Positions 1,247 through 55,187 of a stretch of 64,000 nucleotides of DNA are shown here, in pieces. Under the pieces are notes generated by a model. The model was not told the DNA's origin. It made no database searches and worked only from the letters and a program-made list of their open reading frames with translations. The stretch lies in sequence record OR424388.1, one strand, 5' to 3'. Numbering within the stretch: position 1 is the first letter of the stretch; each line of letters opens with the position of its first letter. The stretch comes from Escherichia phage HEMP5. The translations under genes and the position numbers were made by a program.

Positions 1247-1447
1247 ATGGTACAAAAATTAATGGCACTTGTTAATGCCATCAAAGGTAATAAAAAGCGT
1301 ATAGCTTTTACTATTTCTGCTATGGTAGGAATTTTACTCTGGAACTTTATTTTATCACCTGTTGCAATTGCACATGGTATTAATATTCCAGTAGTTACTC
1401 TTGATACATTCGTAGATTTAGCATTCGCTTTAGTTGGGTTAATTTAA
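1247..1447 (+). CDS. possible small membrane protein on the opposite strand (66 aa)
   Basis: Plus-strand ORF with strong AAGGAGG RBS 4 nt before ATG; two hydrophobic segments; lies in the 56-61 intergenic region, convergent with primase; no clear promoter. Confidence 0.3.
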   Translation: MVQKLMALVNAIKGNKKRIAFTISAMVGILLWNFILSPVAIAHGINIPVVTLDTFVDLAFALVGLI

Positions 1448-2472
1448 ATCTTAGCATATTTAGATAACCGCATTTTAGCCATCAACCCCTGAGCAATATT
1501 ATTTTTCATATATTCCATAATTTGTTCAGTGGTTGCACCTTCCTTTCTAATCATATCATTAACATCTTTTGATTTCCAGGGAGATTTATCCCAAAACATA
1601 ACCCTTTCTCCTGCATCAACTAATTTAGTCATTCGCTTAATAGTGTCAGGATGACGAGGTTCATTATCTAAAACCCACACACGTCTATCTTTAAATGGAA
1701 CAACTTCTAGGTCTAATTGACCACCTGTAATAGCTATACCATTTTCAATAAAAAGCGAATCTATAGGTCCTTCTAGAACATATACATCACCATCTTTGAC
1801 TCGTTCGACTCCATAGATTTTTGTTGCCTCAGGATAAGCTTTGATGGTGATATATTTTTGAGGAGCATCTTTCTTTAATGCACGTCCTTGAAAAGACTCA
1901 GCTTTTCCGTTAGCATTATAAATTGGAATAACAAGACGAGGCTCAGGTGTTTCCTTTTTATATGTTCCTGGAGCTATACTATTAACTAATTTAGGCCATT
2001 CAGTTGTAAACCAAAGATATTTCCATTTATCCTTTGGAATACAACGAGCTTTTACATATTTTATAATTGGATGGTCTTCCGCCAATTTATCTAATCTGAT
2101 GCATGACGGAAGAGATTTAATTATTTTCTTCTCAGGTTGTTTAGGAAGTTCTTTAGGTTTTTCTACTGGACGACTTTTACCTTTTTCTTTTCTTATTTCA
2201 AAGATATACTCACGATATAAATCAGGTTCAAACTCCTTTAAATATATTCCGATTGGTGCATGATAGTTACAGTTATAACAATGAATATTTCCTTCATTAT
2301 TATCGCCATAATACCATCCACGGGCTTTATTTTGATCGGTTTTTGAATCTCCACAAACGGGACATCTAAACCGTAATTTAAAAGTTGAACTATTATTTAC
2401 TTGTGCGAATTTAGGTAAATGAGCCAATGCACGGTATGCAAACTCATTATCAATCCAAGGTATTGATGACAT
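1444..2472 (-). CDS. 61: DNA primase gp61
   Basis: 342 aa; zinc-ribbon CPVCGDSK...CYNC plus TOPRIM-type core; same length as T4 gp61. Confidence 0.95.
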   Translation of the reverse strand: MSSIPWIDNEFAYRALAHLPKFAQVNNSSTFKLRFRCPVCGDSKTDQNKARGWYYGDNNEGNIHCYNCNYHAPIGIYLKEFEPDLYREYIFEIRKEKGKSRPVEKPKELPKQPEKKIIKSLPSCIRLDKLAEDHPIIKYVKARCIPKDKWKYLWFTTEWPKLVNSIAPGTYKKETPEPRLVIPIYNANGKAESFQGRALKKDAPQKYITIKAYPEATKIYGVERVKDGDVYVLEGPIDSLFIENGIAITGGQLDLEVVPFKDRRVWVLDNEPRHPDTIKRMTKLVDAGERVMFWDKSPWKSKDVNDMIRKEGATTEQIMEYMKNNIAQGLMAKMRLSKYAKI

Positions 2473-2474
2473 TT

Positions 2475-2639
2475 TTACTCTTCTTTTTCTTTAGATTCCT
2501 CTTTTTTCTTTTTAGGAATCTGTTCAGGACCTTTATTTACTACAGCACCTGACGTTGTTCCAGTGGAGATATTTTCAGGATTACCACCTGAATCTCCAGC
2601 TACCATATCTTCTTTAATAAATTCTTTATATGTTTTCAT
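2475..2639 (-). CDS. small protein with internal-protein-type capsid targeting sequence (54 aa; T4 61.1 position)
   Basis: MKTYKEFIKEDMVAGDSGGNPENISTGTTSGAVVNKGPEQIPKKKKEESKEKEE; N-terminus matches the MKT(Y/F)xEFIxE CTS of IPI/IPII/IPIII; stop 5 nt before the primase start. Confidence 0.5.
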   Translation of the reverse strand: MKTYKEFIKEDMVAGDSGGNPENISTGTTSGAVVNKGPEQIPKKKKEESKEKEE

Positions 2640-2640
2640 A

Positions 2641-3267
2641 TTAACCTCTATTCATAAAAGCATTAAAAATTTGGTCATCAATAGAAACATCTACTTTAGA
2701 CTGTTTTTCTGATGGTAATTCATATCCACATATTACAATTTTGTGATCAATATCAAAATACACAGAAGCAATATGATTAATGATGTTTTCAGTAAAGTCT
2801 AAATCAACATCAATATCTTTTTGACCACAGCCCAAAGGATAAATAATGCGAGTAATTCGATTATCTTTAACAAAGATTCCACCGACATACTCTGTGCTGC
2901 GTTTAAAGTCTACACGCCAACGAAATGAAAAATATTCAGGCTCTTTATGAGCTCTGCTCATAGGACACAACGAGTAACTAGAATAAGAGATGTCAAATCC
3001 TACGCCTTCAATATGAGCCAAAGTATCATGATTAAACCAATTATAATCGTACGCCAAATCCATTAGATTATAATATGTAAAAGGCACCGGATTAACGTCA
3101 TTAATCACAAGCATGTAATTAGCAACTGCTATAATTTCATTGTTTTTAACGAATACAAACCGTGATTGATGCGAATGACCTGGACCCGCGTTTTCACGAT
3201 TAATGATATAACACTGGGCACCTTTATATTTGTATGTATCTTTGCACTTGTGCATTTGATAGAGCAT
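2641..3267 (-). CDS. hypothetical protein at the T4 61.2 position (possible AdfA-like anti-DarT factor by synteny)
   Basis: 208 aa; TAATG overlap with sp; assignment to the AdfA family rests on position and recall only, no motif confirmed. Confidence 0.7.
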   Translation of the reverse strand: MLYQMHKCKDTYKYKGAQCYIINRENAGPGHSHQSRFVFVKNNEIIAVANYMLVINDVNPVPFTYYNLMDLAYDYNWFNHDTLAHIEGVGFDISYSSYSLCPMSRAHKEPEYFSFRWRVDFKRSTEYVGGIFVKDNRITRIIYPLGCGQKDIDVDLDFTENIINHIASVYFDIDHKIVICGYELPSEKQSKVDVSIDDQIFNAFMNRG

Positions 3268-3560
3268 TATTCACCTACCACTTCAGCGATGATATTTTTA
3301 TTATTAAAGTTTTTATCGCAATACAGAACATAATTATACTGCATTACACCACCAGACTTAAGCTGTTTTTGCACTTCAGCTTTCATTTCGGGGCGATCGC
3401 GCTCAACGATATTCATAATATCTGCTTCAATTTGAGTTTCAACCTCAGTCTGATCCGCAGTCATAGACCATTCGCACAAATCTTTATCATAGCCTGCCAT
3501 GGCAGGTTGAGCAGCGCAAGAAGCTAAAGCAAAAATTGCAGCAAAGATAAATTTTTTCAT
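3267..3560 (-). CDS. sp: Spackle periplasmic protein (inhibitor of gp5 tail lysozyme; superinfection exclusion)
   Basis: 97 aa; signal peptide with lipobox-like LASC; GAGG RBS; matches recalled T4 Sp length and sequence. Confidence 0.85.
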   Translation of the reverse strand: MKKFIFAAIFALASCAAQPAMAGYDKDLCEWSMTADQTEVETQIEADIMNIVERDRPEMKAEVQKQLKSGGVMQYNYVLYCDKNFNNKNIIAEVVGE

Positions 3561-3620
3561 GATAATCTCCTCGGTAGTTTATGTTTATATAATATCTCAA
3601 TTTCCAACAAAAGTAAATAG

Positions 3621-3878
3621 TTATTTTAAAACTTCTGCGTAATCACATGTTACAAACTGTTTCTCTAGCTTGACGATTTTACGAAAGTATCTTTTGCATT
3701 GGCGAATCTGCCTCTTCGTAGGACGTACAGCAAACTTAATAAATTCCACTCGACCAAATGGAGGACTTTCTTCTGCTGGAATATCTAACACCAATTCCCA
3801 CGTATCTGCAACAAGTGCTTTGAATTGCGTATTTTTCCTGACATTATACGGAGTAGGTTTAAATAAAACAATATGCAT
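3621..3878 (-). CDS. hypothetical protein (T4 61.4 position)
   Basis: 85 aa; ATG with GAGGA RBS. Confidence 0.7.
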   Translation of the reverse strand: MHIVLFKPTPYNVRKNTQFKALVADTWELVLDIPAEESPPFGRVEFIKFAVRPTKRQIRQCKRYFRKIVKLEKQFVTCDYAEVLK

Positions 3879-3879
3879 A

Positions 3880-4062
3880 TTATCCTCGGCAATCTACTTC
3901 ACATACTTTCTTGTCATCAATGAAAGCTTTAACTAATGCTTTATTAACTTCAGCATACTGAGTAGTAACCCATTGAACATCATCTTTCATCATTGTGGTT
4001 TCTTTAGTAAACATGCTTTCATTCTTAAACCACCCCATAAAAACTACCTTTACCAATTCCAT
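3880..4062 (-). CDS. dmd: Dmd antitoxin (inhibitor of host RnlA/LsoA toxins; T4 61.5)
   Basis: 60 aa MELVKVVFMGWFKNESMFTKE...; GGAG RBS; matches recalled T4 Dmd. Confidence 0.85.
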   Translation of the reverse strand: MELVKVVFMGWFKNESMFTKETTMMKDDVQWVTTQYAEVNKALVKAFIDDKKVCEVDCRG

Positions 4063-4120
4063 AACAATCTCCTCATTTAACCAACAAGACTACTATACCA
4101 TAGTCTTGTCAGCTTGTAAA

Positions 4121-7153: not shown

Positions 7154-7996
7154 TTAATCAACTGCTATTGGATGAATAGCATTAAACTTATGAAATGCTT
7201 CTGATTTTTCTTTACGTGAAACGCACATGCGAAGAACCTTTAATGGCTCGTCTTCTTCACCCAACGATTTTCGTTTTTCAATATTAGAAGTTTTCCAACG
7301 AGCTTGCTCTGGAAACTCTCTATTGATTTGCTCAAGCGCTCTATTATGTTTAGAATTACTACGAATTGAACTGCACCCGCCAGGAGCTTGTGCTTTTCCA
7401 GATACAACCAGATATTTGAACAAGGCCAAATGCGGATAACCTTGATTAATTAAATTGAGAAATGCATACATATCTTCGCACAAATCAATTTTTCCATACC
7501 CAATTTGTTCTGTCGTAAGTTTTCCGAGGTCATACCATGTATTCGTGAATCCATATGAGTTTTCACGATAATTACCCCAAGATGAAGTAATTTTAAAAAT
7601 TGGTAGGCGAGCATGACCGTGATAATACCCGCAATCCATGGCATCTTCGACGTATTGAATCAATTCATAGAACTGTTCATGAGTCAATTGATTGACTTTA
7701 TCTACACAACGACGGTCATCTCTTTTTCGCATTGAACTCATACGAATAGTAGTATCATCGTCAATCATCCAGATTCGTTGACCTGCATACATATCAGTAA
7801 TTGCTTTACGAGTACCGGCAATTCCGTTTACATCATCAGGAATAGTTACAATTTTAGCTCTAGACCCATAGGCATCATAATAAGCTTTTTCTTCATGTTC
7901 ACGCACTACAATATGGGGTTCATAATCAGTCGGAAACATATCAAGGGCAGAAACTGCCCCGACACGCTGATAACTTGGAATTACGAATTGAATCAT
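7154..7996 (-). CDS. glycosyltransferase with DxD motif, T2/T6 beta-alpha-gt type rather than T4 beta-gt
   Basis: 280 aa from ATG overlapping the gene 42 stop (ATGA); IWMIDDDTTI DxD motif; no similarity to recalled T4 beta-gt although it sits at the beta-gt locus. Confidence 0.75.
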   Translation of the reverse strand: MIQFVIPSYQRVGAVSALDMFPTDYEPHIVVREHEEKAYYDAYGSRAKIVTIPDDVNGIAGTRKAITDMYAGQRIWMIDDDTTIRMSSMRKRDDRRCVDKVNQLTHEQFYELIQYVEDAMDCGYYHGHARLPIFKITSSWGNYRENSYGFTNTWYDLGKLTTEQIGYGKIDLCEDMYAFLNLINQGYPHLALFKYLVVSGKAQAPGGCSSIRSNSKHNRALEQINREFPEQARWKTSNIEKRKSLGEEDEPLKVLRMCVSRKEKSEAFHKFNAIHPIAVD

Positions 7997-8733
7997 TTCC
8001 ACTCACCTTTATAGTCTTTTTTCACAATATGAGTTTCGCCAGTATTCCACCAATGATCAACCAAGTAAAAATGACGAGAATATACATGAAGACTTCCGAC
8101 ATTCCATATAATAGAACCTGCTTTATACTGACGAGTTGAATCGCCGGCATTCAAATCAGATACTAATTTATCTAATACGTATTTTTGCCATGCATAATCA
8201 TTGCGGAATCCGAAGACCACGTCATTTGAGCGCATGCTTACTACTGCATTTACTTTCTTATCACGAATCAGGTACTGTACTGTATTAGTACACATGAAAT
8301 CTGACATACCATCTTTATTGTAGTCAAATTGCATGGATGGACGAGTATAAATCATGATACCACGCCGAGAATCAGGATTTTGACCAAGTTCAGCTAAACA
8401 CATATCATACTGGGCATAGTTATCTTCTGACCAAATAGCCCAACCATAATTCGAGTTAATTTCGCCTTTAGAAGATGCTACCTGCTGCCAAATCTTTGGT
8501 GTTTCACCTGGAATATCTTTAACAAACAAGCTCTTAGATTTATACCATTCAAGTTCGCGCTGAATGTATTCATCATTAAGAGCGCCAAAAATAAACGGTT
8601 CATCTGCTACAAATGATGCGCCAATAATTTCAATAGTTTTAACACCGGTTTTATCAACTACGAAATCTTTTTCTTTTAATGCAAGCCCCAAATGAAGACG
8701 GATTTCTTCAACTGTCATAGAGTCACTAATCAT
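7993..8733 (-). CDS. 42: dCMP hydroxymethylase gp42
   Basis: 246 aa; thymidylate-synthase-like fold; matches recalled T4 gp42. Confidence 0.95.
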   Translation of the reverse strand: MISDSMTVEEIRLHLGLALKEKDFVVDKTGVKTIEIIGASFVADEPFIFGALNDEYIQRELEWYKSKSLFVKDIPGETPKIWQQVASSKGEINSNYGWAIWSEDNYAQYDMCLAELGQNPDSRRGIMIYTRPSMQFDYNKDGMSDFMCTNTVQYLIRDKKVNAVVSMRSNDVVFGFRNDYAWQKYVLDKLVSDLNAGDSTRQYKAGSIIWNVGSLHVYSRHFYLVDHWWNTGETHIVKKDYKGEWK

Positions 8734-23989: not shown

Positions 23990-24361
23990 TTAGTCTTCTA
24001 TGATATCTCTATCATATCCAAGTGAAATGAGAGTTTCTTTGAAGTGTTTAATGTTCTTTTGTCTAGAATCATTGATGAAAATGACTGGATAACGAATGTT
24101 AAGAGATGTGAATCCAGCGCGTTTAGCAAGAGATACAATCAGTGGACGATCATACTCAATCTTACCATTATTTGTAAGAACTTTATAGAAAGTAAAAGGA
24201 GCATTAAGCTCCTTTAGAAGTTTTGTAACTGATTGACATCCAGGACAACGACCTACTTCATCTGGAATTCCATAGACTTCAATCTTATTCTTTAAGTTCG
24301 AGTTTTGTTCCACGAGAAATAATTCCTTGATAAGCCCAGTATGGCGGGTTAACAGAATCAT
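23990..24361 (-). CDS. nrdH: NrdH-like glutaredoxin
   Basis: CPGC redox motif in a thioredoxin-fold context (KIEVYGIPDEVGRCPGCQSV); start ambiguous (ATG at 24361 or GTG near 24313) because of overlap with the upstream ORF. Confidence 0.7.
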   Translation of the reverse strand: MILLTRHTGLIKELFLVEQNSNLKNKIEVYGIPDEVGRCPGCQSVTKLLKELNAPFTFYKVLTNNGKIEYDRPLIVSLAKRAGFTSLNIRYPVIFINDSRQKNIKHFKETLISLGYDRDIIED

Positions 24362-24596
24362 CGCCAGAATTTTCTTCAGGAAAATAAACCTGGATAACAA
24401 ATCCAGATGCATCAAAGGTAAAATAAACCGTAGGTAATTCACCTAACAATTCAGCGCGGTTATTAATTTCTTCAAGTTCTCGTTCTCGTCCAGCCCAAAA
24501 ACTAGGATTTAGACTACATTCATAGAAATAATAGTCATTACCGAACATATCAAAACCCTTCCAACTCTCTACCACATATCGCTCAAAACTAATCAT
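24285..24596 (-). CDS. hypothetical protein
   Basis: 103 aa; ATG start. Confidence 0.55.
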   Translation of the reverse strand: MISFERYVVESWKGFDMFGNDYYFYECSLNPSFWAGRERELEEINNRAELLGELPTVYFTFDASGFVIQVYFPEENSGDDSVNPPYWAYQGIISRGTKLELKE

Positions 24597-46356: not shown

Positions 46357-46935
46357 TTAATTACCACGGGCTGCATTAGCAACGGCATAAGCGTACTGAA
46401 CATTAGCGTCCTTAAACGTACCTTTAGAGGTATCTATTTCTGCCTTAAAGCCGCCTTTAGCCATAACATCGGCAAATTCTTTACGGAAAGCCATTGCATC
46501 AAGACCTTTCCATGATGATTTGTGCTTAGCGAATTCAAGACCAGCGTAGTTGACAGCCTTAGCTAATTTGTTATCAATAACCCATTTACCAGCTTTAGGC
46601 ACAAACACCGGGCCTTTCTGTTTAGAGAACAGTTTTAAATTCCAGCGACGAAGATCACTGTCGGCTTTAACAAAAGCTGCGTCTAAGTTACTAGCAACAA
46701 CATCCTGAATATGGCCAAATTTAAGCCCATCAACTTCAATATTTAGATCGGTACGCCAGCGAAGTCCTTCCCAAGCGAAGGCTTTAAAATCAGAAGCTTT
46801 TGTAGCTAAGTATCGTTCAATAGGGGCTGTTTTAGGGTCAAAGCCGTTTCCACCACGATAAGTCCACTCGTCCTTATTAATGCCTTGAGCTTTTCCTGCA
46901 AAGGCCTCGGCGATAAATTCTTTGTATGTTTTCAT
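46357..46935 (-). CDS. ipIII: internal protein III (capsid-targeted, CTS MKTYKEFIAE)
   Basis: 192 aa; N-terminal CTS; size matches T4 IPIII. Confidence 0.85.
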   Translation of the reverse strand: MKTYKEFIAEAFAGKAQGINKDEWTYRGGNGFDPKTAPIERYLATKASDFKAFAWEGLRWRTDLNIEVDGLKFGHIQDVVASNLDAAFVKADSDLRRWNLKLFSKQKGPVFVPKAGKWVIDNKLAKAVNYAGLEFAKHKSSWKGLDAMAFRKEFADVMAKGGFKAEIDTSKGTFKDANVQYAYAVANAARGN

Positions 46936-47221: not shown

Positions 47222-48462
<1,241 letters not shown>

Positions 48463-54953: not shown

Positions 54954-55187
54954 TTATTTTTTACGAAAAATTGATTTATTTTCTGCTGCCCATTTTTCAA
55001 TAACTGCAGCAGGACCAGTAACAACAATTTTATCACCGTAAACTTCTGCGGCGAGTTGACCGAAATTATCTAATGCATCACGAAGAACTCCATGAGGCAT
55101 TTCACCCATTTTATCTTTCTTGCCGGTGTAAATAAACTCAACTTTTGCATCAGAAGATTCAGCGATAAATTCTTTGAAAGTTTTCAT
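54954..55187 (-). CDS. internal protein (IPI-position, CTS MKTFKEFIAE)
   Basis: 77 aa from ATG; CTS N-terminus; body not obviously like recalled T4 IPI, so possibly a lineage-specific internal protein. Confidence 0.7.
   Translation of the reverse strand: MKTFKEFIAESSDAKVEFIYTGKKDKMGEMPHGVLRDALDNFGQLAAEVYGDKIVVTGPAAVIEKWAAENKSIFRKK

Follow-up and report, generated by a model that had tools for sequence, protein, structure and literature searches.

The internal head proteins of phage T4 carry a capsid targeting sequence (CTS) at the N-terminus, published as MKTYQEFIAE; proteins fused to the CTS are retained in the capsid (PMC8442874), and the CTS alone suffices for packaging foreign proteins (PMC9026906, PMC8442874). 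Amber-suppressor mutagenesis assigned targeting mainly to residues 4 and 7 and processing to residues 8 and 10, and in the internal protein IPIII an aspartate at position 10 stops processing (PMC9026906, the former summarising Mullaney and Black 1996). The major capsid protein gp23 is cut by the prohead protease gp21 after Glu65, which leaves residues 66-91 as the N-fist, with the N-arm next. Before the prohead expands, residues 66-105 of gp23 lack an ordered structure, are located within the shell and are believed to touch the scaffolding core, and the head-length mutations A66D, A94V and G97S are located in this segment; in the expanded head the fist is outside, touches four subunits and is part of the Soc site (PMC9546572, PMC9958956, PMC7136217). 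Here we describe gene 61.1 in a 64,000-nucleotide stretch of the genome of Escherichia phage HEMP5 (OR424388.1; hereafter the window), a Tequatrovirus (T4-like) genome segment. Its 54-residue product starts with a CTS-type decapeptide and continues with a peptide homologous to the cleavage site and N-fist of gp23. The gene and its parts are the following:

2475..2639, minus strand: gene 61.1 orthologue, ATG start, 54 codons plus a TAA stop at 2475-2477 (MKTYKEFIKEDMVAGDSGGNPENISTGTTSGAVVNKGPEQIPKKKKEESKEKEE)
2610..2639, minus strand: codons 1-10, CTS-type decapeptide MKTYKEFIKE, ending in the predicted gp21 site I8-K9-E10 / D11
2526..2609, minus strand: codons 11-38, N-fist-like core, DMVAGDSGGNPENISTGTTSGAVVNKGP, paralogue of gp23 residues 66-93
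2478..2525, minus strand: codons 39-54, Lys-rich tail, EQIPKKKKEESKEKEE, encoded by A-rich runs

The CTS-type decapeptide and the identity of the gene

Translated in all six frames, the window contains the motif MKT[YF]x[ED]F[ILV]x[ED] at exactly four places, one in 61.1 and one in each of three internal-protein genes, and its presence in 61.1 is real and non-random. The three comparison genes lie outside the locus:

46357..46935, minus strand: IPIII-type internal protein gene, 192 aa, starting MKTYKEFIAE (phrog_5341, 'internal virion protein', E 1e-117)
47222..47503, minus strand: internal head protein gene, 93 aa (phrog_3499, E 1e-46)
54954..55187, minus strand: internal virion protein gene, 77 aa, starting MKTFKEFIAE (phrog_8111, E 2e-49)

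An earlier reading made from the letters of the window (hereafter the sequence-only reading) had recognised the CTS at the start of this open reading frame (ORF) and placed it about 44 kb from the internal-protein loci; both observations hold, the measured distances being 44-52 kb. MKTYKEFIKE is identical to the published T4 CTS at 8/10 positions and to the IPIII-like CTS of the window at 9/10, and all four positions found critical by mutagenesis are kept (Y4, F7, I8 and E10). The proposal that the decapeptide could be cleaved after its Glu is also consistent with the sequence, which ends in an I-x-E site of the gp21 kind; a gp21 cut after Glu10 is predicted from this motif and from its register with the gp23 site, described below. 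At the DNA level, the 30-nt CTS segment is the only part of 61.1 that resembles the IPIII-type gene, the flanks being unrelated. Recent recombination with an internal-protein gene was considered and rejected, since the likeness over these 30 nt is no greater than the shared amino acids would give. Elsewhere in the window, a 103-aa ORF at 24285-24596 on the minus strand (phrog_2749, function unknown) starts MISFERYVVES, with a loose CTS spacing (aromatic at position 4, Tyr7, Val8 and Glu10) that is probably due to chance.

The ORF had been called an orphan, which did not hold. It matches the full-length profile of phrog_1823 over residues 1-54/54 (E 7e-34) and the C-terminal positions 109-154 of the phrog_2086 profile (E 2.6e-16), and it is orthologous to T4 gene 61.1, being the Tequatrovirus form of this small early gene; the family is found across the Straboviridae and almost always sits immediately upstream of the primase gene. 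The T4 protein (MKTFKEFIKEDMVAGDSGGNPENISIGTTSGAVVNKGPEQIPKKKKEESKEKEE) differs at 2/54 residues, with five synonymous and two non-synonymous codon differences, and starts MKTFKEFIKE, so that the comparison with T4 called for by the sequence-only reading gives the same type of tag. Over bases 1400-4100, the window has the same DNA (100% identity) as Escherichia phage Paracelsus and a number of further isolates, and an identity of 80% or more is reached by 540 phage records. The Paracelsus copy of 61.1 is 100% identical in DNA and is annotated as a hypothetical protein; the locus is thus already known and is not new.

Neither the short nor the long form of gp61.1 (see below) has a family in Pfam or NCBIfam. 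Nolan et al. (2006) placed 61.1 in a small set of ORFs that have no function assigned and are conserved in T4, RB43, RB49, RB69, 44RR and Aeh1. In the full texts searched for 61.1 or gp61.1 of T4 this was the sole mention, and no functional account was found. In the same library we likewise found no description of an internal-protein-type CTS on gp61.1, of a family with two architectures, or of a paralogy with the gp23 cleavage site and N-fist beyond automated 'major capsid' labels.

Homology of tag and core to the major capsid protein

Several records label 61.1 homologues 'major capsid protein', and the weakest tblastn match of the search was gene 23 of Acinetobacter phage 133; these two observations were the clue to gp23. 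Residues 2-38 of gp61.1 align without gaps to residues 57-93 of gp23 of an identical phage (BLASTP, 16/37 identical, E 1e-8). When gp23(1-117) was compared by hmmscan with 38,880 PHROG families, it matched phrog_1823 (E 3.9e-10) and phrog_2086 (E 4.1e-8), and a profile of long-form homologues aligned to gp23 residues 62-101 by hhalign with 96% probability (E 3e-9). A profile search across the PDB gave significant matches to T4 gp23 chains only (E 5e-8).

In these alignments FIKE10/D11 of gp61.1 falls exactly on the gp23 cut FLTE65/A66, and the critical CTS positions 4, 7, 8 and 10 correspond to gp23 F59, F62, L63 and E65. The ungapped homology, gp23 residues 57-101, spans the end of the Δ propeptide, the LTE65/A66 site, the N-fist (66-91) and the start of the N-arm. 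The two proteins share the pattern GD.G..(N)I..G.T.GA...GP, and both would be disordered unless docked. Tag and cargo of gp61.1 together thus appear to resemble gp23 residues 56-101, with the Lys-rich tail in place of the capsid fold. Unlike gp23, gp61.1 has about 45 shared residues only, no HK97-fold body (P, A and I domains), a length of 54 aa and no Pfam match. The families are told apart by GDSGG in gp61.1 against GDHGY in gp23, and by the K/R tail against MGMVRR followed by the capsid fold. Over 32 residues, gp61.1 and gp23 share 15/32 identities, compared with 25/32 among gp23 orthologues and 20/32 among 61.1 orthologues; judged from these sequences, the duplication that separated the two is ancient. 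The gp23 of cyanomyoviruses matches only from about residue 73-93 onward, and cyanomyoviruses were not among the organisms yielding 61.1 matches.

The last ten residues of the gp23 propeptide (56-65, AQAFGSFLTE) agree with the CTS at each position that is critical for its function: 4 and 7 are aromatic, 8 is Leu or Ile and 10 is Glu. The CTS of the internal proteins may have descended from this propeptide end, and gp61.1 may be the form that links the two.

In GenBank and UniRef, many homologues of 61.1, 51-170 aa long, are entered as 'major capsid protein' or 'major capsid domain-containing protein', and one as 'methyltransferase'; examples are MN894885.1 11611-11787, MT612989.1 86894-87373 and NC_054937.1. 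These names are annotation-transfer errors, either from the N-fist similarity or from neighbouring genes, and the present assignment corrects the recurrent 'major capsid protein' error of the databases.

Two likenesses were seen in the Vibrio lineage, where 61.1 and KVP40 gp23 both have AVV directly after the cleavage-site Glu and both have TTGAVTN.GP. The Vibrio-phage 61.1 core also has a three-residue insertion (GDAGDGSSSPESI) without counterpart in the KVP40 gp23 N-fist. The Vibrio-lineage likenesses were not significant in an eight-genome test described below.

Short and long forms of the gp61.1 family and their genomic setting

A tblastn search detected the 61.1 core in 1,396 phage records; for distant relatives, whose proteins are 150-170 aa long, the match starts only at residue 8-10 of the HEMP5 protein. 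This long form (phrog_2086) consists of a helical N-domain of about 105 aa, standing where the 10-aa CTS stands in Tequatrovirus, followed by the same site, core and basic tail, and its gene has the same position upstream of gene 61. The majority of T4-like genera have this form; it was found in RB43, Ac42, Aeh1, Vibrio phage R11Z (KVP40 type), Aeromonas phage AsFcp_2, Acinetobacter phage Konradin, Serratia phage Muldoon, Salmonella phage STP4-a, the RB69 type and Gelderlandvirus. The CTS is therefore not a feature of the family as a whole: the RB43, RB69-type, Gelderlandvirus, Acinetobacter, Aeromonas and Vibrio relatives have the N-domain instead.

Short forms with a CTS-like start occur in Tequatrovirus, in Jiaodavirus (MKTYKEFVTE, then MVAGD) and in Krischvirus (MIGFKQFVEENKLKE, then DM). 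Within the Tevenvirinae, Gelderlandvirus and the RB69 type retain a long form whose C-terminus is nearly the same, and the short form is therefore derived. A third and unrelated kind of N-terminus is carried by a 112-aa protein from an assembled metagenome contig (P0098). In another protein (P0003, 69 aa, from a 530-bp ENA contig) an acidic N-terminus of 25 residues (MSEEIKRTEEAAEESSNFIH) replaces MKTYK and is joined at EFIKEDMVAGD; the explanation is either recombination or, on such a fragment, the calling of an alternative start further upstream.

Among 119 family members, a hydrophobic-x-Glu site stands 1-2 residues before (M/V)(V/I)(A/S)GD, with rare exceptions that have Asp at the cleavage position. 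Short and long forms alike keep eight core residues unchanged (G, D, G, G, I, G, T, G), and among short forms the core is conserved at overall identities down to about 65-70%. In essentially all 119 members a K/R cluster follows GPxxL/I, where gp23 has MGMVRR. In HEMP5 the A-rich runs that encode this Lys tail (window 2478-2525, minus strand) read CCTAAAAAGAAAAAAGAGGAA..., and T6-type relatives (P0002, P0004) have a 62-aa variant ending KKKKRNLKKKKSKNVINTLD instead of KKKKEESKEKEE. The T6-type tail looks like a frameshift in the A-runs; the longer frame would overlap the start of gene 61.

An AlphaFold2 (AF2) model of the long form has a modest confidence (pLDDT 65), with values of 73-88 over residues 1-70. 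The site and core are predicted to be accessible and disordered, because pLDDT is below 50 in that region. A Foldseek search with the model gave no PDB match, and every BFVD match was an uncharacterised phage protein with the same N-domain. A copy of the gp23 Δ propeptide was considered as the source of the N-domain and rejected, since hhalign aligns only the 40-column core. The N-domain matches 588 phage records, compared with 1,396 for the core. This domain of 70-105 aa defines a phage family that is large and uncharacterised (phrog_18642, with 1,719 clusters at E<=1e-3 and 50% identity), whose typical members, of 180-350 aa, consist of the N-domain, a hydrophobic-x-Glu-Ser junction and a small beta-rich domain; among cultured phages it is essentially limited to T4-like 61.1 genes. 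The long form can be compared by layout alone with head proteins of the giant phages SPN3US and phiKZ, in which a long propeptide and a Glu-ending protease site precede the mature part, a possible analogy.

Within ±8 kb of 80 N-domain loci from IMG/VR, no T4 head or replication homologues were found except one gp41-like gene. Three of these loci (L044, at 7995-8573, L031 and L020) have an ORF of 122-123 aa directly upstream of the N-domain gene, the L044 copy being a DUF7207 protein, and in L044 genes for ribonucleotide reductase (RNR) and RNase H lie near the N-domain gene.

The surroundings of 61.1 in the window, all on the minus strand, are these:

1444..2472, minus strand: gene 61, DNA primase (phrog_47, E 3e-107)
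2645..2648, minus strand: Shine-Dalgarno GAGG of 61.1, inside the last codons of 61.2, read from the sequence
2641..3267, minus strand: gene 61.2, AdfA (anti-DarT factor; PF23813, E 1.9e-134), upstream neighbour and start of the dmd/tifA/adfA block
3267-3560, minus strand: spackle
3621-3878, minus strand: 61.4, DUF7279
3880-4062, minus strand: dmd

Gene 41 (helicase), gene 40 and uvsX follow beyond dmd, also on the minus strand. The neighbours named by the sequence-only reading (primase gene 61, 61.2, spackle and dmd) were recovered by PHROG and Pfam matches, together with 61.4 and gene 41. The genes are closely packed: the TAA stop of 61.2 at 2641-2643 is one base from the ATG of 61.1, and the 61.1 stop is followed after 2 nt by the ATG of gene 61 (junction GAAGAGTAAAAATG). 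The dmd/tifA/adfA block has been termed an 'anti-TA island' (PMC9391042). Gene 61.1 shares with Dmd, TifA and AdfA the early transcription unit, the neighbourhood and the small size of its product; unlike them, gp61.1 has no homology to these proteins by Pfam, NCBIfam or PHROG and stays beside the primase gene in distant genera where the locus lacks them.

Nine other T4-like genomes were inspected. Each of them has 61.1 upstream of the primase gene, and in six the two genes are immediate neighbours (RB43, Ac42, R11Z, Konradin, Muldoon and AsFcp_2). For the other three, two small ORFs lie between (the Krischvirus Ec_Makalu_001), a homing endonuclease gene is next (STP4-a) or the next ORF is unnamed (Ra_O-1). 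The spacing to gene 61 varies, being 150 nt in RB43, and the 61.1-61 locus of RB43 and Ac42 is without the genes of the anti-TA block. In Ec_Makalu_001 a dmd homologue is found at 59.3 kb, away from gene 61, and 61.1 still starts MIGFKQFVEE; the 40-90 kb part of that genome (MN894885.1 40001-90000, including the endolysin and 57B-like genes) has no ORF with a CTS-like start.

Possible roles of gp61.1

The reading that we favour, with a probability of roughly 0.4, is that gp61.1 is a gp21 substrate that enters the prohead as the gp23 N-terminus does, is cut after Glu10 and then acts in the assembly or maturation of the head. We predict its packaging, its cleavage and its function from the sequence relationships described above. 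The swappable N-terminal module, the protease-type site and the conserved C-terminal peptide suggest a layout of propeptide and mature product. Because of this layout, of a site in register with a real gp21 site and of a tag known to suffice for loading and cleavage, the most likely course is that gp61.1 enters the prohead and is cut. It would associate with the scaffolding core of the assembling prohead, as the gp23 N-terminus and the internal proteins do; the gp21 cut after Glu10 would release an intrinsically disordered, fist-like peptide of 44 aa; and the freed peptide could compete for, or fill, the contacts of the gp23 N-terminal segment with the core or with neighbouring capsomers. A role in head assembly or maturation is probable within this reading because the mature peptide is conserved rather than diversifying. 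The codon differences from T4 and the eight core residues invariant across distant genera indicate purifying selection on 61.1. A precedent for a head-assembly gene in the early cluster is gene 40, 3 kb away, and early transcription is no objection to packaging, since in T4 the RNAs of ipI, ipII and ipIII fall into the early class too (PMC9697503 supplement).

Several observations weigh against this reading. The protein class of gp61.1 is 'NA' (not detected) in a time-resolved T4 proteome (PMC9697503 supplement), the protein is unmentioned in the T4 head reviews and head-composition accounts consulted, and no report of it in proheads or virions was found. No late promoter (TATAAATA) lies within 1.9 kb of 61.1. 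The internal-protein-type tag is not essential to the family, as several short-form lineages deviate from it, and some short forms are altered at critical tag positions (MKSFKEVMNE and MTILQQYLDSLNE). The few members with Asp at the cleavage position have the residue that blocks processing of IPIII, and the residue after the cut (P1') is acidic in gp61.1 (D or E), compared with Ala or Ser in gp23 and the internal proteins. A disordered peptide of 4.6 kDa could leave through the 14-17 Å pores of the prohead, as scaffold fragments do. The N-domain family is encoded in nucleotide-metabolism modules in environmental contigs. Finally, the gp23 N-fist and the 61.1 core of the same genome showed no significant co-variation in eight genomes (identity sum 126, permuted 122.25 ± 2.4, P = 0.09).

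A more specific and more far-reaching version, which we consider unlikely, makes gp61.1 a part of the T4-type head that is processed by gp21 and has so far escaped recognition, a free N-fist peptide that would tune head length, expansion or stability. The peptide would be delivered by the CTS, or in most genera by the propeptide domain of about 105 aa, and would dock where gp23 N-terminal segments dock, on the prohead scaffolding core or in empty fist pockets at special vertices. Two corollaries would follow. The ten residues that end the gp23 propeptide would be the ancestor of the internal-protein CTS, AFGSFLTE sharing the four critical positions with KTYQEFIAE, and the N-domain (about 1,700 clusters) with its hydrophobic-x-Glu junction would be a general long propeptide for head targeting.

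An unlikely alternative is that gp61.1 is an early cytoplasmic decoy, which by mimicking the N-terminal segment of new gp23 would titrate a host immune sensor that detects the major capsid protein, a host protease or prematurely active gp21, with no need for packaging. Early transcription, the specific mimicry of the gp23 segment and the position of the gene in the island, whose other genes are 'attractive candidates' (PMC9391042), all agree with a decoy. Capsid proteins are known immune triggers (Gol-Lit, CapRel). A near-universal presence in Straboviridae, syntenic with primase, is unlike an accessory counter-defence gene, and a decoy would give no reason for the conserved hydrophobic-x-Glu site or the swappable N-terminal module. 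A decoy aimed at Gol/Lit in particular was rejected: the homology ends at about gp23 residue 101, near the start of the Gol region (roughly residues 93-122), and so would not include the Gol determinant.

It is also improbable that gp61.1 is an accessory of the replication module, working with the primase and helicase or with nucleic acid through its basic tail, its likeness to the CTS and gp23 being a relic. The position upstream of primase in all the genomes inspected, the 2 nt that separate it from gene 61 here, the conserved K/R tail and the occurrence of the N-domain family among RNR, RNase H and nuclease genes in environmental contigs are in its favour. However, adjacency is weak evidence, because the core gene order of T4-like phages is broadly conserved, and the spacing to gene 61 varies, as described for RB43 and Krischvirus. 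The best-conserved part of the protein is the gp23-like core and not the tail or the N-domain, which Tequatroviruses lack altogether and which is found in far fewer records than the core.

The sequence-only reading had proposed a new injected effector, in which the CTS would load gp61.1 into the head, gp21 would remove the tag and the 44-aa peptide would be injected with the DNA to act in the next host. This is poorly supported, and we judge it quite unlikely; a role in the head is more likely than anti-defence action carried over to the next host. What fits an effector is the bona fide CTS, with all critical residues and with CTS fusions known to be retained in the capsid, the position of 61.1 beside the anti-defence genes dmd, tifA and adfA, and a Lys cluster that could bind DNA. 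The mature peptide had been foreseen as a Gly/Lys-rich product of roughly 44 residues, of which the length and the richness in Gly and Lys stand (44 aa, 4.6 kDa, 6 Gly, 7 Lys and also 7 Glu); it is not basic, with a predicted net charge of -2 and an isoelectric point (pI) of 5.0.

The T4 internal head proteins have in common with gp61.1 the decapeptide MKT[YF]xEF[IL]xE, including its residues for targeting (4 and 7) and for processing (8 and 10), the small size, the early transcription and a predicted single gp21 cut after Glu10. Unlike the internal proteins, whose mature parts are hypervariable, highly basic and folded, gp61.1 has a mature part that is conserved across distant genera, acidic overall and predicted to be disordered. 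Its gene adjoins primase rather than the plastic internal-protein loci, and remains fixed there even where the locus has no anti-TA block (RB43, Ac42); most family members are without a CTS. The absence from the T4 proteome and from the head-composition accounts consulted counts against an effector as well, and so do the many tagless relatives, since a lack of the CTS in relatives is a refuting outcome named by the sequence-only reading itself. A role in capsid assembly is preferred to an injected effector because the mature part is conserved and homologous to the gp23 cleavage site and N-fist.

A decaying remnant or leader ORF, left after loss of the N-domain and kept only to feed ribosomes into gene 61, is very unlikely: the short form did come from a long ancestor within Tevenvirinae, as the long genes of Gelderlandvirus and the RB69 type show, its stop is tightly coupled to the gene 61 start, and T6-type variants have a different tail over an A-rich stretch, but the core amino acids are conserved among short forms and against long forms, the synonymous codon differences from T4 outnumber the non-synonymous ones, and neither a CTS nor eight invariant residues would be required of a leader ORF.

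Gene 61.1 has been one of a handful of conserved T4-like ORFs without function since 2006, and there is now a concrete gp21-substrate hypothesis for it. Should the head role prove true, a virus assembly pathway that is among the best studied would gain a component, an origin would be suggested for the capsid targeting sequence that is widely used in T4 nanoparticle engineering, and there would be a natural case of a CTS carrying a conserved structural peptide and not a variable anti-defence protein. If it is false, a conserved mimic of the capsid arm still needs explaining, for example as a decoy or through a replication role.

On the other side of the primase gene, the window contains a hydrophobic ORF of 66 aa on the plus strand (1247-1447), between the dCTPase gene 56 and gene 61, whose 3' end it overlaps by 4 nt. 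It is a hypothetical protein in the Paracelsus annotation and resembles a small membrane protein.

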